This document shows, one piece after another, positions 3,595 to 38,258 of a stretch of 64,000 bases of DNA (within the stretch, counting starts at the first letter, position 1; each line of letters opens with the position of its first letter). The translations under genes were made by a program, and so were the position numbers. The notes beneath the pieces were generated by a model. The model ran no database searches. It was not told where the DNA came from and was given only the letters and a program-made list of their open reading frames with translations. Source of the DNA: an uncultured Clostridia bacterium (lineage in GTDB: Bacteria; Bacillota; Clostridia; Christensenellales; CAG-917). The stretch lies in assembly GCA_947165815.1 (NCBI GenBank), contig CAMVBZ010000001.1, forward strand, positions 3,633-67,632. Reading direction: 5' to 3'.

Positions 3595-3625
3595 AATATC
3601 TCTTCACTATTTTAATAATGTGTTT

Positions 3626-3654
3626 ATTTTAAAAGTAAAATAAAAAGATGTCAA
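3626..3654 (-). promoter_or_regulatory. Sigma70-like promoter for the 2269..3594 gene
   Basis: Minus-strand TTGACA (3649-3654), 17-nt spacer, TAAAAT (3626-3631). Confidence 0.5.
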
Positions 3655-3662
3655 TAATGATA

Positions 3663-3698
3663 TAAAAAATGCCCGTGCAAGAACAAACTCACACGGAC
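3663..3698 (-). terminator. Rho-independent terminator after the lipoprotein gene 3720..4850
   Basis: Minus-strand GTCCGTG...CACGGGC 7-bp stem followed by ATTTTTTATA. Confidence 0.6.
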
Positions 3699-3719
3699 AA
3701 ATATTTAACAACGATTAAA

Positions 3720-4850: not shown

Positions 4851-4946
4851 GTTTTGAGACCTCCTATATCTCTAAGTATAAAATTATTTTACCACCGCGA
4901 GCAAGTTCATGACAAGACTCACATGGGGTGATTTACGGGTGAATTG

Positions 4947-5423
4947 TTAAAATTTTTGAAAAATATGACAATACCCGTTTGGATTCTTTTCTAAATATTT
5001 TTGATGATATTCCTCTGCTTTCCAAAAATTTACAAGTGGCAATACTTCAACAGCACTATGTTTATTGCTTGCCTTTTCTAGTGCTTCTATTTCTTGTTTT
5101 GCAATATTCATATCTTCACTATTTTCAAAATAAATGCCAGTACGATATTGCTCTCCTATATCCTCTCCTTGTTGGTTTATAGAATATGGATTTATTACTT
5201 GAAGAAACCTATGAATAATATTCTTAAGTGGCAATATGGATTCATCATATACAACTTTTACAGTCTCCGCATGCCCTGTATGTTCATACTTAACTTGTTC
5301 ATACGTTGGATTATCTTTCTTACCATTAGCATATCCAACCTCAGTTTCAAGAACACCTTCTGCACTATCTAAAAATCTTTGTAAGCCCCAAAAGCAACCG
5401 CCAGCCAAATAAATTGTCTTCAT
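4947..5423 (-). CDS. msrA: Peptide-methionine (S)-S-oxide reductase MsrA
   Basis: N-terminal catalytic motif GGCFWG. 158 aa with typical MsrA length and sequence (YHQKYLEKNPNGYC). Confidence 0.9.
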   Translation of the reverse strand: MKTIYLAGGCFWGLQRFLDSAEGVLETEVGYANGKKDNPTYEQVKYEHTGHAETVKVVYDESILPLKNIIHRFLQVINPYSINQQGEDIGEQYRTGIYFENSEDMNIAKQEIEALEKASNKHSAVEVLPLVNFWKAEEYHQKYLEKNPNGYCHIFQKF

Positions 5424-5424
5424 A

Positions 5425-5907
5425 TTAGTCCTTTACGTTATGTTCTACATAGTCTCTTATTTCTCTTAAAACATCATATGGTTTTTCAATATAGTTAAAT
5501 ACAACCCCATGACGTACTCCACGGAATGAAATATTCCCAGTATTTGTCTTTTTATCCAAGATTGATGTGGACGCCTCTGTTGTTACGACGTCTTTATAAT
5601 TAATACTACGATATGACACGCCAAAAGAGCCTGTGCGCGTAATTAAGCGCTTATTGGTATATGCGTAATAAAGATTGTCATATCCCTTCTTAGCGTACCA
5701 AAATGGGAATATGCCCAATGATAACACGGTTAGCATAATGAAATGAGGCCAAAAGATTGGAATGGCAAAAAACAACATCCATTTTACATATCTTTTCTTA
5801 ACTGGTTTAAATACTCCAATTACAGTTTCATCTGCATCTAGATAATCATGGAATATCTCTCTATTTACTAATTCAACACTTGAAGTATCTTCATTGAAAT
5901 CTCTCAT
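5425..5907 (-). CDS. Bacterial PH-domain (bPH_2/YdbS-like) membrane protein
   Basis: Two TM helices followed by YAYTNKRLITRTGSFGVSYRSINYKDV, which is typical of the bPH_2 family. The stop lies 1 nt upstream of the msrA start. Confidence 0.6.
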   Translation of the reverse strand: MRDFNEDTSSVELVNREIFHDYLDADETVIGVFKPVKKRYVKWMLFFAIPIFWPHFIMLTVLSLGIFPFWYAKKGYDNLYYAYTNKRLITRTGSFGVSYRSINYKDVVTTEASTSILDKKTNTGNISFRGVRHGVVFNYIEKPYDVLREIRDYVEHNVKD

Positions 5908-5941
5908 AGCATACCTCCATTAGTTGCATATATTATACCAC

Positions 5942-5972
5942 ATAAATAAAAACCCTACAATTAAGTAGAGTT
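5942..5972 (-). terminator. Rho-independent terminator closing the T4SS-like operon
   Basis: Minus-strand AACTCTAC-TTAATT-GTAGGGTT followed by TTTATTTAT. An extended -10 (TGGTATAAT, 5932-5940) for the next operon follows. Confidence 0.65.
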
Positions 5973-6010
5973 TTTACTATGCTTAACACAAATTAGTTAT
6001 TTGATATGAC

Positions 6011-9000
6011 TTATTTCTTTAAATCATCCTTGTTGAGTTCTTTGTCTTTTCCAACATTAAGAATATCGCCATTAATCTTAATATCTTCTTCATCATCTAT
6101 ATTGATATAGATTTGTTCGCCATCATCAATCTTCTTGTCTTCCTCAACTTTCTTGTCTTCTGCAATTTTATTGATGTTTTCTTTTTCATCAGCAATATTA
6201 TTGAGTTGATCAATATCAATATCATCAAGATAAATTTCAATTTTCCCCGCTCCACTCTTAATCTGATTCTCAATATTAATAATCTTTTCTCTTGCTATCT
6301 CTGCATCAAGATCGATGTTTATATGACCATTATTATTCTTGATTTGTTCTTCAAGGTTTGGTCTAGAATTAATAATGTTAATATTGTTATCATTAATGAT
6401 GTTGATATTTTCATTAATTTGTGGTTGTTGATTTTGAACAACTTGTTGATGTTGAACTCCACCTTGTGCAGGAATTACACCTTGTTTAATATTATCAATT
6501 CTTTGTGCAAGTTGTTGTTTCTCTGCTTGTGTGAGAATCTTTCTGTCATCGACATATTGATCGTGTTCATCTTTAACAAGACATGTAGTTATTCCTTCAT
6601 CTTTCAAGTACAAATTGCCAAGGAATGCGTTCTTTTTATTCTTGCAACGTTCTATATAACGGTTGTAAAGAATTGTTTTTTCCTCATTAGAAAGTTCATC
6701 TATGCTATCAGCAAACTTGCTGTTAATGTATGCATTCTTAGACATTAGTCTATCAGCCTCAAACATTGAAGGAACTCTATCATTGAATCTCTTTGCATCA
6801 AGTTGAGCATTACGTCTATCAAGATACTCTTCACTAATTCTTCCAGCTTTGAAGTCTTGCATTAATTGTGTCTTACGTTGTGCAATTGCTGCATTCAATG
6901 CATTTCTAGCTTCGGTTAATTGTTGTTGTGCTTGTGCTCTTACTACATCATTATTTGCTCTGTCAAAAGTATTTTGAGCTCTAACCACAGCTGTTTGGAG
7001 ATTCTTGAAATTACGGTTAGCTTGTTCATCTGCTGCTCTTGTTTGTGAACCGAAGTTTTTAACTGCACGAGAATTTACGAAGTCAGTATAACTTCTCTCT
7101 ACAAGATTTTGTTGTAAATCTTCTACGGCATTTTCTACATTAATCTGATAATTTTGTCCATTATAAGTAACTCCACCATTTTGATTCATTTGTGTAAACA
7201 ATCCGCGTAATGTTTCTTTTGGATGGACTACGATGTTGTTTAATGTTCTAAATTGAATGCTTTTTTTATCCATTTCTGGATGAGCAACAATATATTTTAA
7301 TGCTGCTTTTTGTATAGCTGTTCCGGCCATTTCTGGTCTTAAAAGAGAATTATGATTTGCTTGTGCAAGTGCAATTGCTTTTCCGCCTTCTTGAACGATA
7401 CGTCTGATATAAGAATTTGCATCTTCATTAGTCTCAATCAAATATTCCATATCATCAAATTCACGACTTGGCATTACTTGCATTGTATCGTAATTATATG
7501 TTGGAACTTCTAGAACTGACACGTCTTCGAGTGGTTCTTTCATCATGAGTAAACGATCAAAATATGGTTTACCATTGCTAAATACGAAATCACGATGTGA
7601 CATTGTTTCCAACTCAAAGTTATTGGTCATAACAAATGATTGATCAACCGCTGCATTATGCTTAGCCATATTTGGATCAGTTTCTATCTTTGTAATATTT
7701 TCACTTGCACGTGTTAGTAATGAATTTAGTAATCTTTCTGGTTTGGAATATGTTGGTAGAGACAATTCAAACAATGCCTCACCTGCTGATTTCCCTCGAA
7801 CAGCCTTATTTGGATCCAACTTATCAATAGCAGTTTTAGTTTGTCTATCCAAAACAGCACGTGGGTCTGCCAAGAAATCATCATAAGAAATGTTTTGTTG
7901 CTTAAGTGAATGATATATTAAATACAATCCATTAAGTGCAGATGCACCAGCAATATTTTTACGGAATTCAATTGGAAGCCCTTGTGTTCTAACAATATCT
8001 AAGTTAGATGAATAATAACCCTTATCTAAGCCAGCATCATTAATCATTTGCATTAATTCTTTTGATTTATTGTATTCACCAATAAGTCTTTCTGAAGCGT
8101 CTCCAACTTTCATCTTTTCAACTGGGTCATTGCTGCTTAATTTATCTATCAAATCGTTATATGCATAAGCAATACCATGGAATCCATAAACCTTTGTTCC
8201 TTCTTCTGGGGCAAATTCATGTTGATCATATCCAAATTCATCAAATTTTTCGAAGATAGCTTTTACGGATTGCTTTGTTTCATCACGTAATTGAACCTTC
8301 ATATTACGCAATGCATTATATTGGTCTAGCATGTCTGGATTTATTTGATCAAGGTTTCTCTTCTCATTAAATTGGTCAATATAATATGGTGGAGCCTTTA
8401 TAGCGCCAGTGAATTTAAGGTTACCTTTTCCTATTGTATCTCCTACTTGTATTCCATTTTCTGCAAATTCTTCAACAGCTTGTTCCTTACGAAATACATT
8501 CATACCAAAGTCGCCTTCTTCACGGGCAGTACGTACACTTTCTAATTCGCTGACATAACTAGGATCTAAGTTTGCAAAGAGAGCACCAGCTTGATCTATA
8601 TTAGCATTGATTTGATTCTTCCTTTCTTCTGTTAATGGTTGACCATGATAGTAATTCATAGCTCCAATAACTCCCTTAGCGGCATTCATCTCATCTACAA
8701 AGACCTTCACAGTGACTTCTTCATCAGGTCTTTCAAGAATTGGTTTATATGCGTCTGTTCTGTATGCAATATTCTTAAATTCTTCTTCAGGCAAACTATT
8801 TACAACTGCTTCCCAAACGTTATGTTGTCCTTTTTGGGCAATATGTTGATTATATGATAATCTGTTAATATGAACTAATCTTGGATCATTTCTTTCTGCT
8901 TCAGTCATAAATGGTTCTGCCATTTGCTTAACTTGTTCCAAAGTTAAAGTTTGTCTATTTGCTCTTATATTAGCTGCCATCGCTTTGGACTCGTTGGACT

Positions 9001-9439
9001 TTTCTGCTCTATTTAAGATACTTGCATAATCAGTCTTGATGTCATAATCAATTCCATGCTTTCCTTCAGCACCCAATGCATTATATACATTTTGTTTTCC
9101 TTCTGGTGACAATTTCTCCCATGATTCTCTAAAGAAGAACTCCATACGTGCTCTTTCTTTTTTAGCTTCTTCAATGGATTGTCTTCTTTCCTGCCAGTTA
9201 TTACCTACTGGATGTTCGTTCATCAAGTCTGCGTGTGCTTCTGTATCCTTAAGTTTTTGTATATAAGCTGCTTTTGTTATTTGAGTACCTGGCTCAAACC
9301 ACTTTCCTGAGAAATCATGTGGTTGCTCAACTTGTGGTTGAGGCTGTGCTTGAGGTTCCTCTACTCTTGTAGTTACAAATCCGAGTTGTTGAGCATTTTT
9401 TTGAATTGCTCTTTCGTTTTCTCTTAGGAATCTTGGCAT
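6011..9439 (-). CDS. Large soluble protein of unknown function (1142 aa), last gene of the T4SS-like operon; N/I/D/K-rich low-complexity C-terminal tail
   Basis: Uninterrupted ORF with AGGAGAA RBS. No signal peptide or TM segment, and no catalytic motif I recognise. Residues about 866-950 are homologous to residues about 288-367 (longest-ORF numbering from 36470) of the 35136..36431 protein. Confidence 0.75.
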   Translation of the reverse strand: MPRFLRENERAIQKNAQQLGFVTTRVEEPQAQPQPQVEQPHDFSGKWFEPGTQITKAAYIQKLKDTEAHADLMNEHPVGNNWQERRQSIEEAKKERARMEFFFRESWEKLSPEGKQNVYNALGAEGKHGIDYDIKTDYASILNRAEKSNESKAMAANIRANRQTLTLEQVKQMAEPFMTEAERNDPRLVHINRLSYNQHIAQKGQHNVWEAVVNSLPEEEFKNIAYRTDAYKPILERPDEEVTVKVFVDEMNAAKGVIGAMNYYHGQPLTEERKNQINANIDQAGALFANLDPSYVSELESVRTAREEGDFGMNVFRKEQAVEEFAENGIQVGDTIGKGNLKFTGAIKAPPYYIDQFNEKRNLDQINPDMLDQYNALRNMKVQLRDETKQSVKAIFEKFDEFGYDQHEFAPEEGTKVYGFHGIAYAYNDLIDKLSSNDPVEKMKVGDASERLIGEYNKSKELMQMINDAGLDKGYYSSNLDIVRTQGLPIEFRKNIAGASALNGLYLIYHSLKQQNISYDDFLADPRAVLDRQTKTAIDKLDPNKAVRGKSAGEALFELSLPTYSKPERLLNSLLTRASENITKIETDPNMAKHNAAVDQSFVMTNNFELETMSHRDFVFSNGKPYFDRLLMMKEPLEDVSVLEVPTYNYDTMQVMPSREFDDMEYLIETNEDANSYIRRIVQEGGKAIALAQANHNSLLRPEMAGTAIQKAALKYIVAHPEMDKKSIQFRTLNNIVVHPKETLRGLFTQMNQNGGVTYNGQNYQINVENAVEDLQQNLVERSYTDFVNSRAVKNFGSQTRAADEQANRNFKNLQTAVVRAQNTFDRANNDVVRAQAQQQLTEARNALNAAIAQRKTQLMQDFKAGRISEEYLDRRNAQLDAKRFNDRVPSMFEADRLMSKNAYINSKFADSIDELSNEEKTILYNRYIERCKNKKNAFLGNLYLKDEGITTCLVKDEHDQYVDDRKILTQAEKQQLAQRIDNIKQGVIPAQGGVQHQQVVQNQQPQINENINIINDNNINIINSRPNLEEQIKNNNGHINIDLDAEIAREKIINIENQIKSGAGKIEIYLDDIDIDQLNNIADEKENINKIAEDKKVEEDKKIDDGEQIYINIDDEEDIKINGDILNVGKDKELNKDDLKK

Positions 9440-9499
9440 AATCTTTTCTCCTATAACATCTCTTTATGTCACTTTATCTAGAAAACTTCGCAATAGGTG

Positions 9500-12160
9500 T
9501 TATGAAGACTTTTTTTCTTCGAATAATTGTGCAACTTTTGCAGATGCTATGATGTTGATGCTAGTTCTGCTTTGAGGACCTGTGATAATAAATGCACTAC
9601 CACGATTATTATTGATAATTTGATCTTGTTCTGTTGCGTTGATATTACCTGCCTTACTATACAATGTGCACAAGTCATCCATATCGTTTGGAGATAGTGC
9701 AAAAATGAATGAATATTGGCAAGCATTAATAATTGCTGTGGACTTTCTAATAATATCTTGACTACCTACAAAGTCCTTAATATTTTGTGTAATGATAATT
9801 TGCATACCATTATACTTTCTAATACGCTTTGCAAGTTGATACATAAAGTCCAACGCTATTGGGTATTTTGGATCGATAAATACGTGAGCTTCATCGATTG
9901 CTACAATAATTTTTCTATTTGTTTTATATTTTAAGTTAAAATCTCTGTTTTTGATAATTTCATTATCAAGCCATTTTAAAACGAGTAACATTTGCGCATT
10001 TGCAATTACCCCATTTTTATTTGCAAGTAAGCTTTGGAAATTGAATACAGCAAAGTTTTCTTTAACAGAAAGTGTACTTGGACCATTCCATAGATTTGCA
10101 TTTCTGCCTCCTGAAGAGAACTTAGAAATAAAGTTTTTAAGTACTCGGAGATTTTCTACTTCATATGGTACGGTTGCTATTTCTAGTTGTTCCAAAATAA
10201 ATGCATATAAATCATCAAATATTGGATACTCTTCCGCTTTAATTTTAGAGAAATCAGAGTCTGCTGTTATGCCCTTCTTTGCATATAAATCAACAATAAG
10301 GTTGTTTAGCATTTCAAGCGCATGAGCATCAATACCTGGTAATATTTCACGGAAGAATTGCTCTAAGAATTGTAGGTGTACCGAGAAGGAATTACCTGCA
10401 TTCTCTGCGTCTTCATCGGCATCTAATGTTGTAATAACATGGAATGGATTAATTCTACCATGTGTGGCTGTGCCGACATCAATAAGTTTTCCACCGATAT
10501 TCTCTGCCATAATATCATACTCGTTTTCTGGGTCGAGAATGAATATCTTACAGTTTTCGGTAGCTAAGTGTGTCAATAATGTTTTGGTTGAATATGATTT
10601 ACCTGAACCAGATTTACCCATAATAACCATATTTGAATTGACACGTTCATTGTTTCTTGCGAAGAAATCTACGATAACTGGGAATCCTTTACTTTCTCCA
10701 ATTGTAATGCCTCCCTTTTCCATAATTGTGGATAATACAAATGGGAATACTGCTGCAATTGAATTAGAGTGTATTGCACGTTGGAACTCTGTCATAACGT
10801 CAATTTTGGATGGATTCATAGAAATCATCGCACGGCTTTGGTTACAAAAGTTATCTGAAATTTCAAAACCTTGTTCTGCAAGTACACGAAGTACACGCTT
10901 TTTAAGGTCTTTCTTCTTTTCTTTTGTACGATTATAAAGTGTTACGTGAATGTTAACTTTATAAAGATTCTCATTGTCATTCTTTAAAAGCGCAAGTAAT
11001 TGAACTAATGTATTAATGTGTGTTGTTCTATCGATAACGGAACTTGCCTTATAGGATTGATCACTTTGTGAAAGTAGTTCTTGCAAAGATCTATCAATCA
11101 TTTTGACTGCCTTATCTTTGTCATAAGGCTCCATATTCATAACAACCTTTGTATCTTCAATATTAAAGAGTTGATAACCCCAAGCATTACCTACAGCAAG
11201 TGGATAATTACGAATAGTAAAATTGAAGCACTCTTCACCATCAACAAATGTACTCCTAGATGTGAAACTAATTTGTTCAGGCAGTACCCAATTCATATAT
11301 TCTCTTTCGTCTAAGTTCTCGATATCTTCTTCGTTAAACTTATCTGTATAATTGTATTTTAAGAATACGCAGATTTCTTTATCATTTAAGATATGAGATT
11401 TCATACCTGCTTCTGAAAATGTTTCTATTGCATTGGACAAGACTTCATCAATAACACCCTTATCTGCGTCATATACAATAAGATAGAATCCAGGGACCAT
11501 AATTTTGTCGTCACCTGTTGAGTTCAAGTTATTGTAAACTTCTATTCTATCTTGAATAACTTTTTCTCTAACAAATAATTCTTGCTCTGTTAGTTCACCT
11601 GCATCATAAGTTTTCTTAAGGTCTTCTCTCTTAAGTTCTTCCATGGCAATAAAATCGTCTAAACGCATCTTCTTATCTATCTTGATTAAAGATGCACGTG
11701 TCTTGCCAGAAATTGTACGAATAATTTTACCAAAATAGTTGTTTATAATTTGGTCTTGTCTAAATCTAGTAAGTAGTCTGAATTCTCTACAACCGATTTC
11801 AAGTACACCGCCATAGTATCCATCAAACTCCATATAACCATTACGGATGTTTTTAAAAGCAAAGAAACTCTTTATATTGGATGCGCTTTCGACATCTTGA
11901 ACAACAAATTTTTTACCGGAGAATAAATATCTTATGAATGTTTTAAAGAATAGATAGAATCTTTGTCCATCATATGGAATATATAAACCTATTGCTATAC
12001 ACAATATAATTGCTGCAATAAAGAATCTTGCGATGCCTATATTGCTTAAACAAATAACAACTATCAAAACTATAGCTATTAGGGCAATCAATATGTCCGC
12101 AACAGATATGTTTTTGAAAAATGTGACTTTAACTTTCGCTGTTTTTGGTATAACTCTCAT
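9500..12160 (-). CDS. VirB4/TraE-type T4SS ATPase with a fused N-terminal two-TM (VirB3-like) segment
   Basis: Walker A MGKSGSGKSYSTK, Walker B IIVAIDEAHVFID, and the IIITQNIKDF motif. The first roughly 85 aa contain two hydrophobic helices. AAGGAAAG RBS. Confidence 0.8.
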   Translation of the reverse strand: MRVIPKTAKVKVTFFKNISVADILIALIAIVLIVVICLSNIGIARFFIAAIILCIAIGLYIPYDGQRFYLFFKTFIRYLFSGKKFVVQDVESASNIKSFFAFKNIRNGYMEFDGYYGGVLEIGCREFRLLTRFRQDQIINNYFGKIIRTISGKTRASLIKIDKKMRLDDFIAMEELKREDLKKTYDAGELTEQELFVREKVIQDRIEVYNNLNSTGDDKIMVPGFYLIVYDADKGVIDEVLSNAIETFSEAGMKSHILNDKEICVFLKYNYTDKFNEEDIENLDEREYMNWVLPEQISFTSRSTFVDGEECFNFTIRNYPLAVGNAWGYQLFNIEDTKVVMNMEPYDKDKAVKMIDRSLQELLSQSDQSYKASSVIDRTTHINTLVQLLALLKNDNENLYKVNIHVTLYNRTKEKKKDLKKRVLRVLAEQGFEISDNFCNQSRAMISMNPSKIDVMTEFQRAIHSNSIAAVFPFVLSTIMEKGGITIGESKGFPVIVDFFARNNERVNSNMVIMGKSGSGKSYSTKTLLTHLATENCKIFILDPENEYDIMAENIGGKLIDVGTATHGRINPFHVITTLDADEDAENAGNSFSVHLQFLEQFFREILPGIDAHALEMLNNLIVDLYAKKGITADSDFSKIKAEEYPIFDDLYAFILEQLEIATVPYEVENLRVLKNFISKFSSGGRNANLWNGPSTLSVKENFAVFNFQSLLANKNGVIANAQMLLVLKWLDNEIIKNRDFNLKYKTNRKIIVAIDEAHVFIDPKYPIALDFMYQLAKRIRKYNGMQIIITQNIKDFVGSQDIIRKSTAIINACQYSFIFALSPNDMDDLCTLYSKAGNINATEQDQIINNNRGSAFIITGPQSRTSINIIASAKVAQLFEEKKSS

Positions 12161-12182
12161 AGATTATTCTTTCCTTAATATC

Positions 12183-13589
12183 TTAATCTTCGTTTTCTTC
12201 TTCTTCAGATGCTTCTGAAATAGTGTCAAGTCCTCCTGGAGGCGATGGCTCATTAGTGAGTGCTTCGGTAATTTGATTTGCAGTCATTTCATTGAGTTTT
12301 TCTTTGCCGAAGTTGAAGTTGTTTACATCAGCTTCACGTGAGCCTCCACCAGTTGTCTCTCCACCATTTGCATTATTTCCAGGTGTTGAGGTATCATTAT
12401 TCTTCAACTTGTCTTGTACATTGTCAGAATTGCCGTATTTTGGATTTGCGTCAAGACCGTCGCCACTATTTCCATCATCCTTCTTGCTTTCGTCGCCGTT
12501 GCCTTCACCTTTGCTGTCGTCTTTACCTTCAGCTTTACCTCCAGTTTTTCCACCAAACAACTTTTTACCACCTGCCATAACTCCTTTGCCTAGGAGTTTA
12601 AGACCACCCATTGCTGCTGCTGCACCGAGACGACCAAGAGATTGATCCATGAGTTCACGTGAACCAGCTCCAGGTCCAACAAGGTTACCAATGAGAGCAG
12701 ATGATCTTTGCATTGCAAAGCCACCACCAATGATTATTAACAATTTGAAAATGCTGTTTAGGAACGAATTATCAAAGAATATTACGTTGGATGGCATTAT
12801 CAACGATATCAGTAAACAATAAATATTTAGATATAGAATAATTCCATATCCAGATATGAACTTGAGGAGAAGTTGTTCTCTCCATAGCTTGAAACGTCCA
12901 CCATCATCTAATACTGATGAAGCAATTGAGAATGGTGAAACCAAGAACAATACACCAATACTGATAGCACGGTCTACGAATTGAATGAGTGCGGCTGTAA
13001 GGACTAATAAAAGGGAAATACCAGTAATCCAAGAGAAAATAAAGTCAAAGTCTGAAATGTCGATTGCTGATGCAACCAAATCTGTATCAAGATATAAATC
13101 ATATCCAGACATAATTTCATTATAAACAGACTGATTTTCAATTGCATCTTGAGAGAATGCCCCGAATAAGAATGTTCCTAATCCTTGTGAACCATTCAAA
13201 GTTGCTTGATATAATGCATTCATTAATGTATTGAGTGCCCATACAAGTGTTAACATTATTAATGGTACAAAGAAGAACAAAAGTAATGCCTTGAAAGCTT
13301 TCCCGGCTACTTGTGCAGGAGAAATTTCTTGTTTAGATTTCATACATACAAGGATAATCCTAAAAATTGTAAAGAAAACTAAAACAACAAAACCAAGTAT
13401 TGCAGCAATCTTAAAACCATTAGCTAAAGCATCACTTCTCAATAAAAAAGAAATGAGATCAGTTTCAGTCCCACCAATATTAACAGTTTCAATGCCGCAC
13501 AATTTGTTTGTACAAGCTATTAATCCGTCAATTAAACGTAATAAGGATTTTGAAATTCCATATAGAAACTCCCAAAACCAATCAAACAT
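12183..13589 (-). CDS. Polytopic membrane protein, VirB6/TrbL-like by topology and context, with a G/K/D/N-rich disordered C-terminal tail
   Basis: About 6-7 TM helices followed by a roughly 130-aa low-complexity tail. Positioned immediately upstream of the VirB4-like gene. No diagnostic motif, so the assignment is contextual. Confidence 0.45.
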   Translation of the reverse strand: MFDWFWEFLYGISKSLLRLIDGLIACTNKLCGIETVNIGGTETDLISFLLRSDALANGFKIAAILGFVVLVFFTIFRIILVCMKSKQEISPAQVAGKAFKALLLFFFVPLIMLTLVWALNTLMNALYQATLNGSQGLGTFLFGAFSQDAIENQSVYNEIMSGYDLYLDTDLVASAIDISDFDFIFSWITGISLLLVLTAALIQFVDRAISIGVLFLVSPFSIASSVLDDGGRFKLWREQLLLKFISGYGIILYLNIYCLLISLIMPSNVIFFDNSFLNSIFKLLIIIGGGFAMQRSSALIGNLVGPGAGSRELMDQSLGRLGAAAAMGGLKLLGKGVMAGGKKLFGGKTGGKAEGKDDSKGEGNGDESKKDDGNSGDGLDANPKYGNSDNVQDKLKNNDTSTPGNNANGGETTGGGSREADVNNFNFGKEKLNEMTANQITEALTNEPSPPGGLDTISEASEEEENED

Positions 13590-13601
13590 TATCTCTCTCC
13601 T

Positions 13602-14471
13602 CTATTTCGAATTAATCAGTATTGCCGTTATCCTTACTTCAACCTTTTCGTATGGAAATTTGGTTTTTTCATAAGTTGCCTGCGCTTCTTCGAAATCTTT
13701 TTCTCCGACATTCTTGTCTGCCGTTGCCTCAGAAAGTGCGTTCATGGCGACATTTCTTTCCTCTTGAGTCGCAGATGGATTATTTAGTACAGCCTGGTAT
13801 GCATCATACTTCGCTTGATATTCTTCTAATACTCTTTGATACTCCTTTTGAGCTTCTTCATATAATATTAGTGCTGGATCATAACAGTTGTTGTCCAATC
13901 TCAATACTACGTATTGTCCAGCTTGAATATCATGTCTCTTAGTTGTTACTTCTCCATCTGTCCATGATTTTAAGTAAGCCACTGACCATTTATTAGCTAC
14001 TCCGTTTAAGTTGCAGGTAGCATGTCCTATGGCCCTACTTACATTAGGTTCATCGCTTTCGTCCTTTGAATATCGACCGCCCTCTCCTGTGTATACTTTT
14101 GGTGGTACTTCGTCATCGTTCAAAATGAAATAAGAAACTGTTAATGTCTCTTGCCTTGTCGATTCGAAGTGTACTGCAATTTCTCCTAGCGAAAGGTCTC
14201 TATCGACTTTGATGAATAGATAAGAATAGTAATCTCTTTCATCTTCATCCATCGGTGATTCAAATTTATTGACTGCGTTCTTATTATAGAAATCTTCCAT
14301 CGTATAATAAGTCACATCAGCAGATCCATCAATTACTCCAACTTCAGGATAAGCTTCGCAATAATCCTCATCATCCTCCGTCCCTTCGCCAAGATCAAAG
14401 CATCCAGACAAAGTAAATGATAAAACTACTATGCAAATTAATAATAGGAAATACCTAATCTTAATATGCAT
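13602..14471 (-). CDS. Lipoprotein with a C-terminal coiled-coil region, T4SS-associated
   Basis: Signal peptide with lipobox LSGC. Its start overlaps the stop of the upstream 99-aa gene by 11 nt. C-terminal segment EEAQKEYQRVLEEYQAKYDAYQAVL. Confidence 0.65.
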   Translation of the reverse strand: MHIKIRYFLLLICIVVLSFTLSGCFDLGEGTEDDEDYCEAYPEVGVIDGSADVTYYTMEDFYNKNAVNKFESPMDEDERDYYSYLFIKVDRDLSLGEIAVHFESTRQETLTVSYFILNDDEVPPKVYTGEGGRYSKDESDEPNVSRAIGHATCNLNGVANKWSVAYLKSWTDGEVTTKRHDIQAGQYVVLRLDNNCYDPALILYEEAQKEYQRVLEEYQAKYDAYQAVLNNPSATQEERNVAMNALSEATADKNVGEKDFEEAQATYEKTKFPYEKVEVRITAILINSK

Positions 14472-14760
14472 ATCCTTGCCACCAGTCAGTGAATATTGTT
14501 ACGCCGACTTGTAACATGATTAACAACACGAAAATAAGCACAAATCCAACGATTGCATGTTGAAGTGCTTTCTTTGCATTCTCATGTTCTTGTGGTTCAC
14601 TGGCACGTGCGTACTTTACTCCAAGTAAAATACAGAAAATTGCACCTACTGCTCCTACTACTGCTAATAATGCAGGAACGAGAATCTTGCATACTTCAAG
14701 AATTGGGGCAATGATTTTGTTCATTTCCGCTGTTGTCATACTAATAAGTGTTAGCATCAT
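14461..14760 (-). CDS. Small two-TM protein, pilin-like (VirB2/TrbC-like) by size and topology
   Basis: 99 aa with two hydrophobic helices separated by a charged loop (KYARASEPQEHENAKK). AAGGAAG RBS. First gene after the conserved promoter element. Confidence 0.45.
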   Translation of the reverse strand: MMLTLISMTTAEMNKIIAPILEVCKILVPALLAVVGAVGAIFCILLGVKYARASEPQEHENAKKALQHAIVGFVLIFVLLIMLQVGVTIFTDWWQGYAY

Positions 14761-14792
14761 AATTCTTTTCTTCCTTCTAAATTATTTAATAT

Positions 14793-14828
14793 CATTGTAA
14801 CACACGAAGTATTACAAATTTATTACAA
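14793..14828 (-). promoter_or_regulatory. Conserved promoter/operator element, copy 1 (upstream of the pilin-like to VirB4 sub-operon)
   Basis: Minus-strand TTGTAATAAATTTGTAATACTTCGTGTGTTACAATG. It has two TTGTAATA direct repeats 11 bp apart, an inverted TTACAA, and an extended -10 TGTTACAAT, with no -35 at 16-18 nt. 35/36 identical to 36468..36503. Confidence 0.65.
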
Positions 14829-14836
14829 CATATTTT

Positions 14837-17800
14837 TTATACTTTCTTTCTCTTTCTCAAGAAGAGAACGATTGTAAATCCTATTGCTATCAATAGACAT
14901 ATAACTATTATTACTATTGTTGTTGGTACATTAGCCGTATATTGACGTGTGAATTCAAATACTTGTTCATTCCCTGCAGCATTTGTAATGACTATTCTGT
15001 AATCACCTTTTTCTTTAATTTCTGGCATCTTTGTAGATGAAGATGTTACAAATATTTCTTCTGACAATGAACCATTCTTATATACTCTAATTACATCACC
15101 AATTTGGCAATTTTCTAATGTAACATTATCTATTGTTAAGGATCCATCCTCTGCACCAATTAATTTTGCTTGAGGTGGAGTCTTGTCTATAACAACATCA
15201 AATTCAAAGTAAGCTGAACTTACTGTTGATGCAACTGTAACATGATATGTACCTGTTTCATCAAATAGCATCGTTGAATTCATCTTGTTTACATTATGTT
15301 TAACTAAGTTTGCATAAGATACCAAGATACCATCTCCAGCATCAAATATAACCTCAGTAATTTTATATGCGTATGGTGATTCATAGTCAAATTTAGATAT
15401 TGCATTTGGTACTGCATAGAAATAGTAATATGCTTGATTTCCAATATCATCTATAATGATGAATTCCCATTTACCAGCATCACCGAAACCAGCACTACTT
15501 GCGATATCATATTCAACACCGTTGAGAACTGCAAGGTTAATTTTTGCTGAATCTTTATTCATTGCCATGAATCTTGCACTTCCTTGCATAATAACACTAC
15601 CATTCTCTACTATTCTATCTGTGCCAGTATAAACGAATGTGAATTCTACCATCGTATCTTTCTTAACTACTGCAGATTGTACATTTCCAGCAATATCTGT
15701 TATATAGAAACGATATGAACCATCTTTTGTTAATTTTTCACCTAATGAATATGGAATTAATTCACTACCGTTTAATGAGTATTCGCATTTTACAGAATCT
15801 GGGAATTCAATAGCGACATTATCTTTTGTCATCTTGACTTCATTGATTTCAACAATCTTCATGAGTTTTGTTAAATCGATTTCTAATTGCTTACGAATAA
15901 GGTTGACTTCGAATGTATACTTGAAGCCATATTCATCTACATAAGTTACATTCTTCTTATACTCACCTGTATCCTCTCCATCTGATGGATAACGAAGTGT
16001 GAGTGGCATATCTGCCTTATCTCCGTCTACACGGATTTCAAATATTCCAGCACTTGTTTCAAATGTTACACTGTAGTTGGAATAAACCTTATTATCAGTA
16101 CCTTCAGCAAACTCAATGTTTTCTGCATCACGAGATGTACGAATTAATCTAGAAACTTTTAGTGTCTTATTGCCCATATAATGCAATGTAGTGTTTGTTA
16201 CATTACCATTTTCATTACGCATTCTTAATACATATACACCATCACCCTTTGAACCGATGATGTCTGTAATGCGCTCTGCAGTAACTGGAGTACCTTCGTC
16301 TTTAAGTATGTCAAAGATAACTGTTTCTTCGTTGTCATAAAGCATTGAGACTTGCATAATGCCATCTGCAATCATCTTCTCTGCATTTATAGAGAGTTTC
16401 TTGTTGCTATAACCATCTTCTTTTCTTAATGCATCTTCATTATATCCAGTTAAATAATCATGTTTGAATTCAAATGGTTTGTCTTTAATTTCAAAATCTA
16501 TAACTATCTCATTTTGGAATTGATCTCTAATAGTGAGATGATATTTGCCTGGTGTAGACCATGAAACTGAACATACACCACCTATTCCCATAATAATTCC
16601 ACCATCTAGATAGATTTCATCACGAATAGAATTGTATTCAATCCATTCAGTATAGACATCAATAGAAACTCTTTCGTTAGATTTATAAGTTGATCCACTT
16701 ACAACTGCATGTTGAACTGAATAATCATCTATAAAGTCAGTTGTTATAATAGCTCTTAGTTCATTTGACATTGTTACTAAGAATTCTGCAACTCTTCCGT
16801 AAATATTGACTACAACTACAGAATAGAATCCTTCTTCAGTGAATATAACTTGTTGATAACCATTATTTAAGTCATAAATTGTTTGATAATCACTGAATTC
16901 TCTTGTCAAAGAGTATGCAACTGATATTTCTGTGATATTTGTGAATGAAGTCTCTGCGACAAAGAAACCACCATTCAAGTAAATTACTTGCTCTGTTGAT
17001 TGTGGTATGATTTGTTTTTCAGCAACATCGTCACCAATATGTTCAAAAGTGATTGATGGCAATTCTGCACTCATTACAACCTTTGCAAAATAAGGTTGAT
17101 AATCACTATTGTATACGATTCTCATTGAAACAGTTGCTTCACCTACAGCTGGTGCATCTACATGATAGTAAACATTATTATTCTCATCAAATCTAACTGA
17201 GATAGTTACTCCGGCATTGTTTTCGTCTGCCAATACAAATGACTTTCCTGCTTCAACTTCTGCCATATTAGAAACAATTGTTGCATAATAGATTTGTTGA
17301 TATAATAAGATTTCATTGTCATAGTCATCGTATAGTGGATTGCCTTCTTCGTCTGTCAATCTGATTAAACGATAAGCAACTTCATACAATGCACCATTTA
17401 CACTTTCATATGCAAGATATTTCTTTTCGCCATTTTTCTCTACAAAGATAACAATCTTACCACTTCCGGAATACATAAATTCCATATTTTCATATGAATA
17501 CGCATCTGCAGGATAGTAATAACTATCATTTTCTATTGTGATTGCATCTGCTGGAGATAGTTTGATATCTTTTACGTTGCCATCAACAGTAAATTCAAAT
17601 TTGTTTGCATCATAGTTTGCAAAAGTGAATTCACTTTGATTTCCAAGTGTATCTCTTGCAACAATACGATATTCACCGAAACGATTGATTGTAATGTTAT
17701 TTACACCTTCGCTTTCGCTATATTCACGGATCATAACTCCGTCCAAATAAATCTCAACTTCACTACAAATTGATTTATCATCAAATGATAATGTCAAAAG

Positions 17801-20800
17801 TGTTGAGTAAATTGTTGAGTTAGCACGTACTGCTTTAGATATTGTCTTTGTAACACCAAAGTAAATATTATCTGGTACAAAATATTCTGGACTTGATGAA
17901 GTAAGATTACTTTGATTTGCTTCTTCTATTTGCTTTTGATCATAATATTTAACAACGTCTTGTCTTGCACTAACATTAATGATTGGTGCAGTTTGGTCCA
18001 TTATGCAATTATATACAATATATATTTCTGGATAACGTGCATATCTAATTGTTAACTTCCAGTCTACTGCATCGTTAATGTTAACACGAGTTTTTCCATT
18101 GAACTCACGTGCTGTTGTAGATATTGAACGATCATAGAATTCATATTCATATTCTTCTGATGTATCAAATGTGAACATCAAATGTTTGTTAGTTACTATT
18201 GCATATTCTCTTTCAGCTGACTTTTGAATCTTTAAACATGATTGTGAGCCGTCATATGCAATATAATTATCATCTTCTTGATAGAACCAAGAAATTTTTG
18301 GTAATTCACGCTTTAATTCATAGTCGTAATAGAATGTATTACCAAACCAGTCTTCAATACGAATTGAATAAATACCTGATTGATAATATGTAACTGAAGA
18401 TGAATAGTTGGATTCGATCAACTTATTATCTAAATAAATTTCAAACAACTTAATCTCAGATGTATCTCTATTACATGTAATACGTACATAACGATTCTCT
18501 TCTGGAATCACTTTTACTTCCAATGGTGTGGAGTTCAAAGAAACATATACCTTGTACATATTTCCAGAACGGTCTGCAATTTCTAAGTAGTATTGACCTT
18601 CTCCTACTTCTATTCCTGCTGCTGGAATATCTTCTCTACGATATACATTAAGTAATACACCATTCTTCTTAAATACAGCGATGTAAGACATTGTATCTAT
18701 TTCTGTTGCAGTTGAGCTAAATCCTTTGATAGTTAGAACTTTACCATTGATTGTCATGCCATCTACTGCTGCATCAAGTTCACGATCAATGCTATCACCC
18801 TTTGCATTCTGATAAGATACATTAATTGTTGGTGCGGACTTATCAAGATATACCTTATAATCTCTTACACCATTTTCATCACATTCGCGAATCCAATATA
18901 CACCACCATCTATGTTCAAACTGCCAAATACACTTCCCTCTGGCAACAACTTAAATTCTCTTGATATTGGTGCACCAGATGCATCTGTTTGATTTGTATA
19001 GAATATCTTTGTAAATTTTCCATATGTGAAGTTATATGTTGTTACTAATGAACAAACCAAATCTTCACCTGCTGGCAATACGTGACTATTATAAATATCT
19101 ACATCCCCTTCAAATACAACAGCATTTCTAAGTTCTGCTCCTGCATTTGTTACAAAAGATGTTAATCTATTAAGGACTATTTGATTCTTATCTAAATATG
19201 GTGAACCATTAGCATCTAATCCATCATTTCCGCTTGTTAAATAAGTATATCCACCTTTATCTACAATTGTATCTGTTACTTGTCCAATAGCAGTTGCTAA
19301 AGAGTTAGGCAAACGTTCTGGGTCTATTTCTGAACTTGTGCCAAGGAAATAATATACCCAAGCATCAGAAGATGTTGCATTATCCCATGTTGCACGCTTA
19401 TAACGAACCCATACTTGTCCTACAGAAGCAGTAACTGAAGCATCTAATGCTGCCTTTCTATAACTACCATCACCTGTATTCAAAGATGTGGCTTGGGAAG
19501 TGGTCCTAATTTCAAAAATTCCAAGATCTAGCATCTCATGGTATTTAACATATTCAACAGCCTTATCTCTTGAAGAGAATGCCATTAATCTTGTTGTGTC
19601 ATTATAGTTCTTTTGACGTACACCTTCTCCGTTATGATAATAATATGTTGAGGAATTAAGCATATAAACTTTGTTAATAAACAAAGTACCACTACCTGTT
19701 GCTAAGTAATTATATGTCTCGGCCTTATCCGTACCATTTGTCAAATAGAAGATAACATCTGATGATTCTTGAATTGTATGGTTTTCACCAGTACCAGATA
19801 TTGCCTTGAAGTTAATACGTACAACACCAATAACACTTGTCTTAAATTGAATGTGTACACCATCTATATCTGAAGTATACTCTATGTAATCTTCAAATTT
19901 GGCTTCCGCTATTTCTTTCTCTCCAATATACAAATGATTAATATCATATTCATCTGCTTGTCTTGAGAATGAGAAATCAAATGTTGGAGAACCTCCAGCT
20001 ATGTTATATACAGGAACTGAATCCGCATCAAAGAATGGCTCCTTAGATGAAGAAACTTCTACTTCAACTTCAGATCTAGCATCGAAGTTAACAATGGTTG
20101 GATAGAATGTATATGTTGAGATAGACGCTGAATTGCCTATTCCATCAACAGCATAGAATGCCAATGTTACATCCTTTTGTTCTTCTTTTTGAATACCTAA
20201 CATCTCATATGTTAGTAAGAAGACTACTCTATTGTTTTCAGAGATTGTGATACGATTACTCTTTTCATCTCCATTGATATCATAAAGTTTTAATATTTGA
20301 GGTACATCCTCACCCTTGAACAAGTAATACATATATACTTGTGCAACTCCTGAAGAAGCTTCTCCTCTTGGTTCGTCATTTACATAGAATACAACATTTC
20401 TTTCTTTCAATCCCTTTGTTGCTTCCTCTATTGTAAGTCCTGTAAATGTAGGAATTGAGTTATCGAACAAGAATGGACCATATGTCATTGTAGCAACTTT
20501 GCCATATACACTTTCCATGTAAATATGGAGATAGTAAATGCCAGAGAATCCTTTAGCTTCCAACATGACCTTTTGTTCAGAGGATGTTAATACTAATTGC
20601 TTTTCATATATTGCTGGTGCATCACTCTCAACTGTCCATGAATATTCCATTATTGCACCAGGTGCTGTTTTTGTAATCTCAATAGGTACTGATGCATTTC
20701 TTTGAGGTTTTGCAGAAATATAATAACTGCTATCTATTGTAATAGATGGAATACGTGTATCTAATGAACATGCATTATCCCATTCTGTATCTCTTGGTAG

Positions 20801-23800
20801 AACAACTGAACCTACTTTGTTATTTGTTCTAGAAACATTATATGCATAATCACAAATTGAAGATTGATTTCCTATGTATGAAAGTGATACAGCACTTATG
20901 TTAATATCGGATGTATAACCAGATGGATCAAATTCAAAATACAATGTATCTGTTCCAGCACCACCAGCATATTCAAATGAAATGGTTTGCATTGAACCAG
21001 CAACTGTTGCATTTATATAAGGTTCCTTTCCTAAAATATAAACCGGTTCAGAGAAACGAACTGATAAACGTAAACTATCGCCTAAATGTATGGTGCCATG
21101 ATCGATGTGCCAACTTTGTATTGTTGGAGCCGTTGTGTCTACAAGCAAGCTATATCCTAATACATTATTAATATTTCTATCTGGTAATATATAAACATCT
21201 CTAGAATAGACTCCAGCACCACCGCCACTTGAATAATATCTAGTAATCATACCTTCATCCTCATGGATGTTAAGTACAATTGTGCCACTACTATTTACTG
21301 GAACAAGGAAGTACTTGCCTGAACTTGCATTTCCACGATATTCACCAATTTTTAATGCATTAGTTGAGTCATATGTCTCTCCAGAAGAATTTGTTCCTGG
21401 ATATGATAAACCCAATGATATACTCTCGTTATCCTCATCAATATCTTTAAGATAAACTCGGAAGAGTTGTTTGTTTAGAGACTTGTCAGATAGAGTTAAA
21501 CGTAACTTTGGATAATCTGACTGATCATTACCAGAAATATCCATTGTTGATGAAACATATAAATTTGCCAGTCCTGTTGAAACGAAAGTTGTTAACCAGG
21601 TTTGGTTTACTGAAAAATCAAATGAATAATCATAGTATTTACTTTCAGCATTATATGACTCTTTGTACTCCATAGCCACATTTGGCAAACCATGTTTGTC
21701 ACCTTTTGTATATGGTTCAAATACTTGTATATCATCTTTTTTAACAATATTTATTTCTTGTTCTCCTGGACATGCACATTCAATCGCTGACTTACCCTTC
21801 TCTGCATTTCCTTCTAAATACTCAATATAGAAATCAAAGGTACGTCTTGCATATACATGTGTTGAACTATTATATGTAGAGAATCCGGATGGGTGTGTTT
21901 GAATAACAACCATCTGCTCTTTATTTGTTGGTGTCAAAGTAACAATGCCCTCATATGCATCATAATCACCCAATGAGGCTATTGCGCTTCTATCACGAGT
22001 ACGAAGATGTACTACTACGTTATCAACGAGTTCATCTTGTGTGCCAACATAAACAACAATACGATTTGTTTGATCTGGTTGAGCAATCCCTGCGCCATCT
22101 TTTTCAACTGGTCTCAAGTCAATTGCTGCAGGAACAACGGCACGTTTAGCTATACGATTATATGTAACAGCAATGTTTGGATATAATGTGTAGTAAATAC
22201 GTACTGACCAACGTTCTGTAGAATCAACATTTACATAAACATATTTCTTTCCACTTACAGTACGCTCTATTGCCTGATATGTAACATTTCCCGTAAATGT
22301 ATATGAATATATTGTTGTGGAGTCAAGTACGAAAGTTAATTTATCATCACTTGAAATATAGTATGTATCAGAGTGGAACAATGTCATATCCTCTGGATCC
22401 AAGTCTACATATCTGTCTTCAGATCTAGTAACCCACTTTATATTCTCATATGGATTTACTCTTGTTAAATCTGCCACTGTATGAACTTTTCCTATGTCTG
22501 GATCTGTAGATGGAGAAAGTGTATAGCCATATTTATCTATAACCATAAATTCATATCTACCAGAATCTGTATAGATTAATGAGTAAGACTCGTTTCCATA
22601 GATGTCTGTTGTTACAACTGCCTCAGCGGCAAAGTCAACTTCTTCCATTGCATATCCAGGACGACTTACATAAACATGATTTAATTCTGTAGGAATTCTA
22701 TCTGGAATAGTAAAAATTATCTTGTCATCTTTTATCACTTCAATGTTTGCTGTCAAATCTGTTCTTGCAACAGATATTGTCATTGAGAAACCATTGCCAG
22801 CACGGTCATAAATTTCAACAATAAATACACCATATGGGAATTCATAAGTTCTATCTTCAGATACAAGATCATGTAAAGAGAAACTTGCCTCTAATTTCTT
22901 TATTCCGTCTGTGATATTGAATATTGCAACATATGAATATGTATCTGCATCCAATCCATATCCATGATAATCATTATATGTTATATCACTTGAGTATGGT
23001 TTATCTTCAAGGAGAGCCAATGTAAATGCGCTTGTATATAAGATGTCTCCATCATTATTATCTTTTACCCACCATTGGTTGTAATGCATTGTATGCTCTG
23101 CATCTATATCAGAATATGTGCCATGAATTGTTGGACAATCTAAATCTACGTATACAAAATAATCATGCATACCAGTTTCGTCCAACTCACGAATGAAGTA
23201 AATACCAGACTTTGTTGCAGACTGTGTTAGGTATGATGTTTTAAGCAATGTTAAATCATCTTTATACGATGTGATATCGAATATTAAATTCTTATCTATG
23301 TCATATTTGGCCTCTGCATAATAAATCTTTGAACTATTTGATTGAATAAATTTATATGCGGACACAAGTTTTACATTATCTAGGTCATTATATTTGTCAT
23401 AGAATACTTCTTTATCAAAATTATAAACGAGTGGATTTGTTAATGATCCTGTATAAATTAAGTTAGTCGATGGTACACCAACGGATGATGTTGCTATATA
23501 CGTATCAGGTATACGAACTGGATCAACATATAATGCGCCATTATCACTTACTCCAGACAATGAGGATAAATATAAATCAGACCCTTTTTGAATAATCAAT
23601 TGAACAATTTGGTCTACAGCTGATGCCAATTTAGGTGAAATCTTACCAATATCAATAGTTGTATTTACAGATGAGTCACCATAGTAATAATATGCCCAGT
23701 CACGTTGATTGGTTGAGAATTTCCATGTCGCTGCTTTGTATCTAATCCATACATCCCCTACTTCTGGACGGCGAACTTCACCACGTTCTGTTATTAGTGT

Positions 23801-26995: not shown

Positions 26996-26996
26996 T

Positions 26997-36431: not shown

Positions 36432-36467
36432 TAGACTACTCTCCATTATAATATGAATTATTACAAC

Positions 36468-37895: not shown

Positions 37896-37926
37896 AAAAA
37901 AAACGAACCCTCTAAAAGAGTTCGTA
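37896..37926 (-). terminator. Rho-independent terminator after tRNA-Val
   Basis: Minus-strand ACGAACTCT-TTT-AGAGGGTTCGT imperfect hairpin followed by T8. Confidence 0.6.
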
Positions 37927-38231: not shown

Positions 38232-38258
38232 TTTAGTAATAAATATAAGTTCTTTTTG

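Follow-up and report, generated by a model that had tools for sequence, protein, structure and literature searches.

A duplicated 36-nt element with 11-bp-phased repeats in a T4SS-like locus of gut Clostridia: a putative promoter box for a SARP-type response regulator

Introduction

The response regulator PhoB binds in tandem to pho boxes and recruits RNA polymerase. In a pho box, an AT-rich spacer of 4 bp separates two 7-bp direct repeats, which replace the -35 region and are located approximately 10-11 bp 5' of the -10 hexamer. Histidine kinases of the PF06580 type usually partner with LytTR or AraC-type regulators, and LytTR sites consist of 9-bp repeats with 12-bp spacers, yielding a period of 21. 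The targets of SARPs contain direct repeats at a spacing of 11 or 22 bp, and 8 bp separate the 3' repeat from the -10 element (PMC10936776). In the afs box, two 11-bp repeats occupy positions -40 to -19 and are bound by a side-by-side dimer of AfsR, each protomer of which contacts the first 8 bp of one repeat, the base contacts being made by T88 and R92 (PMC10936776).

A large family of response regulators, comprising at least 2056 clusters at 90% identity, includes members that were named “SAPR family response regulator” by JGI (COG3947, REC-wHTH-BTAD). In the literature searched, neither functional studies of COG3947/SAPR regulators nor a description of a COG3947 binding site or regulon were found, and nothing relevant was found on two-component control of T4SSs in Clostridia. 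In this article we analyse a locus of an uncultured gut Clostridia bacterium, which encodes a member of this catalogued group together with components of a T4SS-like apparatus. Two nearly identical 36-nt elements precede the two halves of the gene block; they most likely represent a pair of activator-dependent promoters, and their repeats are probably bound by the SARP-type response regulator of the locus itself.

The gene block and its two intergenic elements

The window, i.e., the whole 64-kb stretch of DNA that was analysed and to which all positions refer, harbours a block of genes flanked by housekeeping genes. The block genes concerned are all located on the minus strand, and the relevant features are as follows, starting from the kinase side.

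37930-38006: tRNA-Val, beside the block
36538-37833, minus strand: membrane histidine kinase of 431 aa (PF06580 His_kinase and HATPase_c), presumed partner of the regulator
36468-36503, minus strand: element copy 2, kinase side (upstream unit 36493-36503, downstream unit 36482-36492, spacer 36475-36481, -10 TACAAT 36469-36474)
36461-36463, minus strand: transcription start of the operon of the 431-aa gene, regulator, VirD4 and giant protein, as predicted from the geometry
36460-36466, minus strand: third TTGTAAT, overlapping the predicted start of copy 2
35136-36431, minus strand: 431-aa protein of unknown function, first gene 3' of copy 2
34345-35139, minus strand: response regulator of 264 aa (receiver, winged-helix output domain of SARP type), proposed to bind the repeats
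29498-34327, minus strand: 1609-aa protein, predicted copy 2 operon
26997-29507, minus strand: VirD4-type coupling protein, predicted copy 2 operon
14837-26995, minus strand: giant protein of 4052 aa, predicted copy 2 operon
14793-14828, minus strand: element copy 1, pilin side (upstream unit 14818-14828, downstream unit 14807-14817, spacer with TG 14800-14806, -10 TACAAT 14794-14799)
14786-14788, minus strand: transcription start of the pilin operon, predicted from the geometry approximately 7 nt past the -10
14461-14760, minus strand: T4SS_pilin, first gene of the predicted copy 1 operon, ATG at 14760
After the T4SS_pilin gene, minus strand: proteins of 289 aa and 468 aa, predicted copy 1 operon
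9500-12160, minus strand: VirB4-like ATPase, predicted copy 1 operon
6011-9439, minus strand: 1142-aa protein, last listed gene of the predicted copy 1 operon (6011 to 14760)

Copy 2 falls in the interval from the kinase stop codon (36538) to the probable ATG of the 431-aa gene (36431), the ribosome-binding site of which is GGAGAG at 36439-36444. This gene overlaps with the response-regulator gene, and the genes for the 1609-aa protein, VirD4 and the giant protein (14837 to 34327) overlap or are closely spaced. Copy 1 lies 8 nt past the stop of the 4052-aa gene and 33 nt 5' of the pilin ATG, and the pilin gene has the ribosome-binding site GAAGGAAG at 14770-14777. No box precedes the kinase gene. 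The 431-aa protein is 41-59% identical in the loci L006, L008 and L012 described below; it is also weakly similar to part of the 1142-aa protein.

Occurrence and anatomy of the element

The 36-mer TTGTAATAAATTTGTAATA[C/T]TTCGTGTGTTACAATG is present in two minus-strand copies, at 14793-14828 and 36468-36503, and the pattern TTGTAATAAATTTGTAATAYTTCGTGTGTTACAATG has only these two matches in the window, even if 3 mismatches are tolerated. The 36-mer was recovered in none of 100 dinucleotide-preserving shuffles. The original prediction of an element duplicated at 35/36 identity is thus borne out exactly; the sole difference between the copies is element position 20 (C or T). The tandem core TTGTAAT-N4-TTGTAAT with 0 or 1 mismatch likewise occurs in the 64 kb only in the two copies, as expected from the claim that no other promoter in the window carries the element, while the lone heptamer TTGTAAT is not notably enriched (39 observed vs 27.6 expected in the window). 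The 19-mer core TTGTMATAAATTTGTAATA has at least 119 matches in unrelated contexts in 596 Gb of genomes, and therefore, this core alone is not diagnostic. Among the core matches listed, none contains the full 36-mer and none lies near homologues of the proteins of the block.

Each copy is composed of two 11-bp units, consisting of TTGTAATA plus 3 variable bases, followed by 7 bp between the end of the downstream unit and a TGn-extended -10 element, TACAAT. In element numbering (1-36), TTGTAATA occupies positions 1-8 and 12-19, TG positions 27-28 and TACAAT positions 30-35, and the element also comprises TGTTACAAT. The repeats start 11 bp apart in both copies, as had been noted from the letters of the sequence. 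If the -10 is set at -12 to -7, the two units cover approximately positions -41 to -31 and -30 to -20. A 17-nt spacer puts TAAATT at the -35 position and neither copy has a -35 hexamer, in agreement with the predicted combination of an extended -10 and the lack of an acceptable -35. The spacings from the repeats to the -10 amount to 12 or 23 nt, neither of which fits a sigma -35 spacing, and a consensus promoter scan called neither copy as an ordinary sigma-70 promoter.

The similarity of the two copies had been proposed to extend further upstream; this holds for an A-tract (6/10 positions) and for nothing beyond it, and the sequence 3' of the 36-mer is unrelated between the copies. A simple terminator scan identified no hairpin preceding either copy, again as predicted. 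A sigma-70 promoter candidate in copy 2, GTTACA-17-TATTAT, was rejected: its start would land within the ribosome-binding site, and copy 1 lacks it. The third TTGTAAT near copy 2 is 27 nt away from the downstream repeat and thus out of phase with the box, and it is not conserved in L006.

Domains and fold of the response regulator

The receiver domain of the regulator (PF00072, E 5e-18) contains the residues D7, D55, T83 and K103, which are invariant in 56 homologues. The output domain reaches 18.2 bits with Pfam Trans_reg_C, under the cut-off of 26.2, yet its fold is still a winged helix of that superfamily; a match to a LytTR domain was not obtained with Pfam. In a profile search of solved structures, full-length OmpR-family regulators align through residues 196-212, and a full-length AlphaFold model (pLDDT 88.9) matches PrrA, DrrB, VanR, PhoP, KdpE and PmrA over approximately 230 columns. 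The output domain was also modelled alone (residues 124-264, pLDDT 87.8, pTM 0.85). The best match of this model is the SARP EmbR (E 1.8e-5, 153 columns), and AfsR in transcription-activation complexes is matched with E values of 6e-5 to 3e-4. PhoB-type effector domains rank after the SARPs (E ~7e-3) and align with the winged-helix core only (82-86 columns). By sequence, the output domain falls between both groups (DrrB 9e-4, AfsR 0.03, EmbR 0.1). The structural matches to EmbR and AfsR, followed by PhoB/OmpR effector domains, agree with the OmpR/PhoB/SARP-type output domain that had been assigned to this protein.

A full BTA domain comprises approximately 145 residues. In the window regulator merely about 50 residues, corresponding to the first about three short helices of this domain, follow the wing, with no match to Pfam BTAD, and hence the BTA domain is considered truncated. 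In addition, the output domain carries a conserved extra C-terminal helical segment (CDYYDxLxGD...GEYM..YSWAE).

Comparison with described systems

The closest parallels to the window element are SARP boxes, for example the targets of AfsR, ActII-ORF4, DnrI and RedD in Streptomyces. In these promoters as in the window, 11-bp direct repeats overlap or replace the -35 region, each 11-bp unit contains approximately 8 conserved and 3 free bases, and the 3' unit is 7-8 bp away from the -10. Compared to the afs box of the afsS promoter recognized by AfsR, the layout in the window is the same within 1 bp, with units spanning -41 to -20 and 7 bp to the -10. The DNA-binding domain of the window regulator is also structurally closest to EmbR and AfsR, and by analogy with SARPs two protomers are predicted to be arranged side by side and to act by sigma adaptation (PMC10936776). 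Unlike in SARPs, however, the domain is fused to a phospho-receiver as part of a two-component system, and only the first approximately three helices of the BTA domain are present. Moreover, the window stems from a low-GC gut Clostridia bacterium and not from an actinomycete, its repeat TTGTAATA is rich in A and T, and the putative targets are not antibiotic clusters but a T4SS-like apparatus and giant surface proteins.

The combination of receiver and winged helix is shared with PhoB, PhoP and KdpE acting at class II sites, where phosphorylation would drive tandem head-to-tail binding. As in a pho box, the 7-bp repeats of the window with their 4-bp AT-rich spacer stand in for the -35 element, some 10-11 bp 5' of the -10. 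In contrast to PhoB, the output domain is closer to SARPs, matches Trans_reg_C below threshold and carries the extra C-terminal helical segment. The kinase resembles those of the LytS/LytTR and YesM/YesN systems in its core of PF06580 and HATPase_c as well as in the adjacency of kinase and regulator genes, whereas the window regulator differs from the partners in these systems by the lack of a LytTR or AraC domain and by repeats that are 11-bp-phased.

Conservation in orthologous loci

The regulator is identical on five gut-metagenome contigs, and further homologues show graded identities. A kinase paired with the regulator is likewise encoded in L001-L012, L055 and L215. The kinase-side element is kept in L006 (regulator 77% identical), L215 (75%) as well as L008 and L012 (72%), the sequence in L008 being TTGTCATAAATTTGTAATAGTTCCGATGTTATGAT. 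L010 (regulator 50% identical) lacks the 431-aa gene, and here the element is located after the regulator and before a 3228-aa gene (TTGTAACGGTATTGTAATATGCCGTGTTTTATCAT). On the pilin side, the element is kept in L211, L212, L216 and L219 (e.g., GTGTAATAGATTTGTAATACCTCGTGTATTATAAT), and the gene order of the pilin operon is the same in L211-L214, L216 and L219. L008 and L211 form one contig, and L215 and L212 belong to one regulator cluster; both element positions are thus conserved in other genomes. The box upstream of the pilin gene is absent in L213 and L214 (VirB4 77% and 66% identical, respectively), and therefore, control on the pilin side is not universal.

Nine intergenic regions were aligned, namely the two window copies, L006, L215, L008, L012, L211, L212 and L010, the regulators of which are 50-100% identical. 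The invariant columns are the upstream TGT.A, the downstream TTGTAATA, one spacer T and TA..AT of the -10, while the 3 bases after the downstream TTGTAATA vary and the upstream flanks cannot be aligned. In L006, L211 and L216 a GC hairpin is found 5' of the element, which fits an independent promoter. The two copies within a genome are identical at 35/36 positions in the window vs 25/36 in the L008/L211 genome, suggesting that in the window lineage a recent homogenisation has brought the pilin-side copy into line with the kinase-side version.

Putative promoter architecture across the regulator family

To extend the comparison to distant homologues, a profile of the regulator was scanned against metagenome contigs, yielding 80 loci that are mostly about 40% identical. 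A total of 85 regulator loci was then subjected to a pair test, which scored [TG]TGTNNN repeats with at least 6/7 identity and a TAnnnT 17-19 nt past the start of the second repeat. Period 11 accounted for 41 repeat pairs, 35 of which have a -10 in the offset range, and in 27 of the 41 the offset equals the 18 nt observed in the window. Just 0-3 pairs with a -10 were found at periods 8, 9, 10, 12, 13 and 14. An unbiased tally of exact 8-mer direct repeats around the regulator gene peaked at period 11, with 35 repeats. Periods divisible by 3 reached 17-21 owing to coding repeats, and the remaining periods 3-8. Period 21, the spacing of LytTR sites, is at the mere level of the other multiples of 3 in this count at the regulator loci. 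The density of sites is approximately 13-fold higher in regulator loci (29 in 0.66 Mb) than in more AT-rich control loci (3 in 0.89 Mb). At most family sites a ribosome-binding site and an open reading frame follow 20-110 nt downstream. The layout typical of promoters dependent on winged-helix activators, which the original prediction had recognized in two copies, is thus reflected in intergenic regions where conservation is restricted to the repeats and the -10, at the kinase side as well as the pilin side, and in a family-wide enrichment of the 11-bp phasing.

The repeat itself is lineage-specific, TTGTAAT, TTGTCGC, TTGTTGC, TTGTCAC, TTGTAGC and TTGTTGT being among the versions found, and it is uniform over all sites within one locus. 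L055 harbours at least 5 sites, which are located before kinase, GGDEF and chemoreceptor-type (MCP) genes, with another repeat pair before an HD-domain gene, and L072 harbours three sites. With sites before differing genes and one repeat version per locus, the sites travel with the regulator rather than with cargo or T4SS genes. L062, whose regulator is 42% identical, has a TGTAGCAC box with the regulator on one side and homologues of the 1609-aa, VirD4 and giant proteins on the other.

The lineage-specific repeats covary with residues of the predicted recognition helix. Repeats ending in C pair with Arg at the position of window Ser191 in 14/14 loci, counts that are not phylogenetically independent. 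The TTGTAAT group features Ser-Gln at the positions of Ser191/Gln192, and the other repeats ending in T pair with Gln, Gly or Glu at the Ser191 position, with one exception. In the alignment window Ser191/Gln192 lie opposite R87/T88 of AfsR, next to base-contacting residues (PMC10936776). This pattern suggests that the predicted recognition helix reads repeat positions 5-7.

A model for coordinated control of the T4SS-like block

In light of these features, we regard it as quite likely that each 36-mer is a promoter, in which the -35 region is replaced by a box for the response regulator encoded in the locus. The original interpretation is supported, since all of its testable parts held. In the proposed circuit, the adjacent membrane histidine kinase would phosphorylate the regulator, a pair of regulator molecules would then occupy the box next to each other, each on its own 11-bp unit, and the bound regulator would recruit or adapt the housekeeping RNA polymerase. 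The latter step is proposed because AfsR and other SARPs as well as PhoB act in this manner on their own boxes.

Copy 2 would drive the expression of the 431-aa gene, the regulator, the 1609-aa protein, VirD4 and the giant protein, and copy 1 that of the operon encoding the pilin, VirB4 and the 1142-aa protein. Given that the regulator gene would itself be driven by copy 2, a positive feedback on the regulator is predicted, and with copies 1 and 2 under one regulator, both halves of the T4SS-like block would be induced together. As the kinase gene is devoid of a box, the putative autoregulation covers the regulator and not necessarily the kinase. The strong TGn-extended -10 may allow some activator-independent (basal) transcription, and repression by a protein positioned at -41 to -20 is also conceivable in principle.

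Alternative explanations

Among the alternatives, the one that survives best, albeit as an improbable one, is a repressor operator. In this case, a repressor dimer would occupy the inverted repeat TTGTAATAC-N5-GTGTTACAA (TTGTAA-N11-TTACAA) overlapping the -10, and both operons would stay silent until the dimer is released. The arms of the inverted repeat match at 8/9 positions in copy 1 and at 7/9 in copy 2, and a strong extended -10 might need no activator. However, the right arm coincides with the -10 region, and the reverse complement of TTGTAATA (TATTACAA) is itself -10-like. The inverted TTACAA half-site pointed out in the original prediction is present in the sequence but not independently conserved: in the orthologues the right arm becomes TTATGA, TTATCA or TTAAAA and leaves the left arm unmatched, no pair is altered on both sides, and 69/500 shuffles pair equally well. 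Furthermore, the repeats of the wider family, such as TTGTCGC, have no complement at the -10, and the upstream direct repeat is conserved though superfluous to an operator of this kind.

Somewhat less probable still is an arrangement in which the boxes are recognized by another binder, i.e., a factor encoded elsewhere, the 431-aa protein or an alternative sigma factor. The binding of the regulator to the repeats is itself deduced from comparison, and the customary association of PF06580 kinases with LytTR or AraC-type regulators would be compatible with a different partner. Yet a search that started from the regulator alone retrieved the sites beside differing cargo genes in the absence of the 431-aa gene, and the repeat sequence tracks the recognition-helix residues of the regulator. 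A distance of 12 or 23 nt from the repeats to the -10 suits no sigma -35 spacing, and with respect to LytTR, the regulator does not belong to this class and the repeat period is 11 rather than 21.

We judge it very improbable that the copies are remnants of recombination or mobility, in other words att-like or duplication scars around the 21.6-kb segment from the 431-aa gene to the giant gene, with no regulatory role. The copies are directly oriented and 35/36 identical at a distance of 21.7 kb, the block adjoins tRNA-Val, and the higher copy identity compared to the L008/L211 genome points to a recent homogenisation. On the other hand, no relaxase, integrase or recombinase was detected in the window with Pfam, and no att-like repeats of tRNA-Val were found elsewhere in the window. 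Diverged genomes hold the element at the same two intergenic positions with the repeats and the -10 alone conserved, and the same architecture occurs before unrelated genes beside distant regulator homologues. Equally remote is an RNA-level element, where a hairpin of the downstream repeat and the -10 would act in read-through transcripts as a processing, stability or attenuation signal: although a folding energy of -11.1 kcal/mol (z = -2.3) was obtained for the 76-nt intergenic RNA at copy 1 and pairing is possible in 88.9% of the cells of the 9-bp stem among the orthologues, copy 2 folds no better than shuffled sequence (z = -0.4), the stem is followed by no U-tract and features no compensatory change, there is no match to an Rfam family, and family members whose repeats differ are unable to form the hairpin.

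Regulon prediction and significance

The promoter type to which the activator box would belong is a known one (SARP or pho-box type), and for this reason the element is useful rather than surprising. New are the specific box, the family of REC and SARP-type regulators in Clostridia and the family-wide grammar; a description of the box, the regulator family or the promoter grammar was not found in the literature searched. The locus yields a testable regulatory model, in which one kinase signal and one regulator would act on two box promoters in a T4SS-like giant-adhesin locus of uncultured gut Clostridia. An abundant, unstudied response-regulator family is thereby also given its first candidate DNA motif, together with a candidate promoter grammar. 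The fixed architecture renders regulon prediction possible in metagenome-assembled genomes, and the lineage-specific repeats together with the covarying helix residues represent a natural set of orthogonal regulator-promoter pairs.

In a broader perspective, we lean, if only slightly, towards the view that REC-SARP (COG3947-type) regulators constitute a large class in Clostridia with regulons that can be read from sequence. A TTGTnnnn repeat particular to each lineage would be embedded in the scheme of two 11-bp units, 7 bp and a -10, and a few recognition-helix residues (Ser/Gln vs Arg at the positions of AfsR R87/T88) would set the specificity. In one gut lineage, an environmental signal would thereby control a chromosomal, relaxase-less T4SS-like machine along with giant surface proteins. 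Compared to plasmid-borne proteins, the VirB4 protein of the window has best matches that are merely 27-31% identical, found among Spiroplasma plasmids and “Mbov_0397 family ICE” ATPases.

The promoter-like element beyond the T4SS-like block

The architecture of the 36-nt promoter-like element, two 11-bp repeats followed by a -10 hexamer, recurs at loci that encode distant homologues of the response regulator proposed to bind it. At one of these loci (L055, positions 3472-18100), where the regulator homologue is approximately 41% identical, at least five TTTGTCGCR-N2-TTTGTCGCR boxes are found, each with a signalling gene behind it. The genes encode two kinases, two GGDEF proteins and a chemoreceptor-receiver protein, and an additional repeat pair lies upstream of an HD-domain gene. 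One promoter grammar apparently serves quite different regulons across the regulator family.

Another relative (L063, positions 4420-5751) carries the box TTGTTGCAC-TT-ATGTTGCGG, followed by TATAAT, upstream of genes for a small membrane protein and a putative sigma factor. Judged by eye from its sequence, the latter looks like a sigma-70 region-4 or ECF-type sigma factor. A T4SS pilin homologue comes next, an order that hints at a cascade leading from the regulator to the sigma factor and on to the pilin.

Within the window, a further repeat unit adjoins copy 2 of the element:

36460-36466, minus strand: third TTGTAAT, just 3' of the copy 2 -10 hexamer and over the predicted transcription start

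The phase of this unit differs from that of the box, and it has no counterpart at copy 1 or at the orthologous locus L006. It could represent a low-affinity feedback site or a chance occurrence.

Repeat cores and arrays in other genomes

Matches to the 19-mer repeat core in cyanobacterial genomes (L096, L151, L155, L159, L173, L181, L195 and L205) are part of a longer conserved element, CTTAACACT-TTGTAATAAATTTGTAATA-GCATAG, which has no connection with the Clostridia system. In several uncultured Clostridia MAGs, 11-bp units recur in arrays of three or four, e.g., CACTTGTAAAAT-TTGTAATAAAT-TTGTAATAAAT-TTGTA.., at the following loci:

L107, L119, L123, L142, L149, L163, L166, L177, L183, L197: arrays of 11-bp units

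No regulator homologue was found near these arrays within the 8-kb stretch covered. The arrays may represent extended boxes that serve related factors, or a repeat element of another kind.

Composition and boundary of the T4SS-like block

The kinase gene and the T4SS-like block begin right after a tRNA gene, which is flanked by terminator-like hairpins:

37930-38006, minus strand: tRNA-Val(GAC) gene, directly upstream of the kinase gene
38206-38235, 38068-38088 and 37903-37925: terminator-like hairpins

Such a position is typical for island insertion; a second occurrence of the tRNA-Val sequence was not found elsewhere in the window.

Among 72,556 plasmids searched, the VirB4-like ATPase (9500-12160, minus strand) finds its closest relatives in proteins from Spiroplasma plasmids and in "Mbov_0397 family ICE" ATPases. 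Since these are only 27-31% identical, the T4SS-like machine is distant from characterised Gram-positive conjugation systems. The 431-aa protein encoded after copy 2 (35136-36431) is weakly similar to part of the 1142-aa protein (6011-9439), whose gene ends the operon that holds the pilin and VirB4 genes. Through orthologues of the 431-aa protein, the similarity amounts to 24-30% identity with E-values from 1e-7 to 1e-10.

At L214 (positions 17943-21769), a relaxase, a MobC/NikA-like protein and a serine recombinase flank a T4SS block with a 66% identical VirB4. Pfam recognised none of the three in the window's block, which may therefore be a domesticated or non-conjugative derivative.

Elsewhere in the window, a TPP riboswitch (60240-60327, minus strand; Rfam RF00059, score 55.1 bits, threshold 54.3) is located immediately 5' of the gene for a PF09515 thiamine transporter at 59172-60242.
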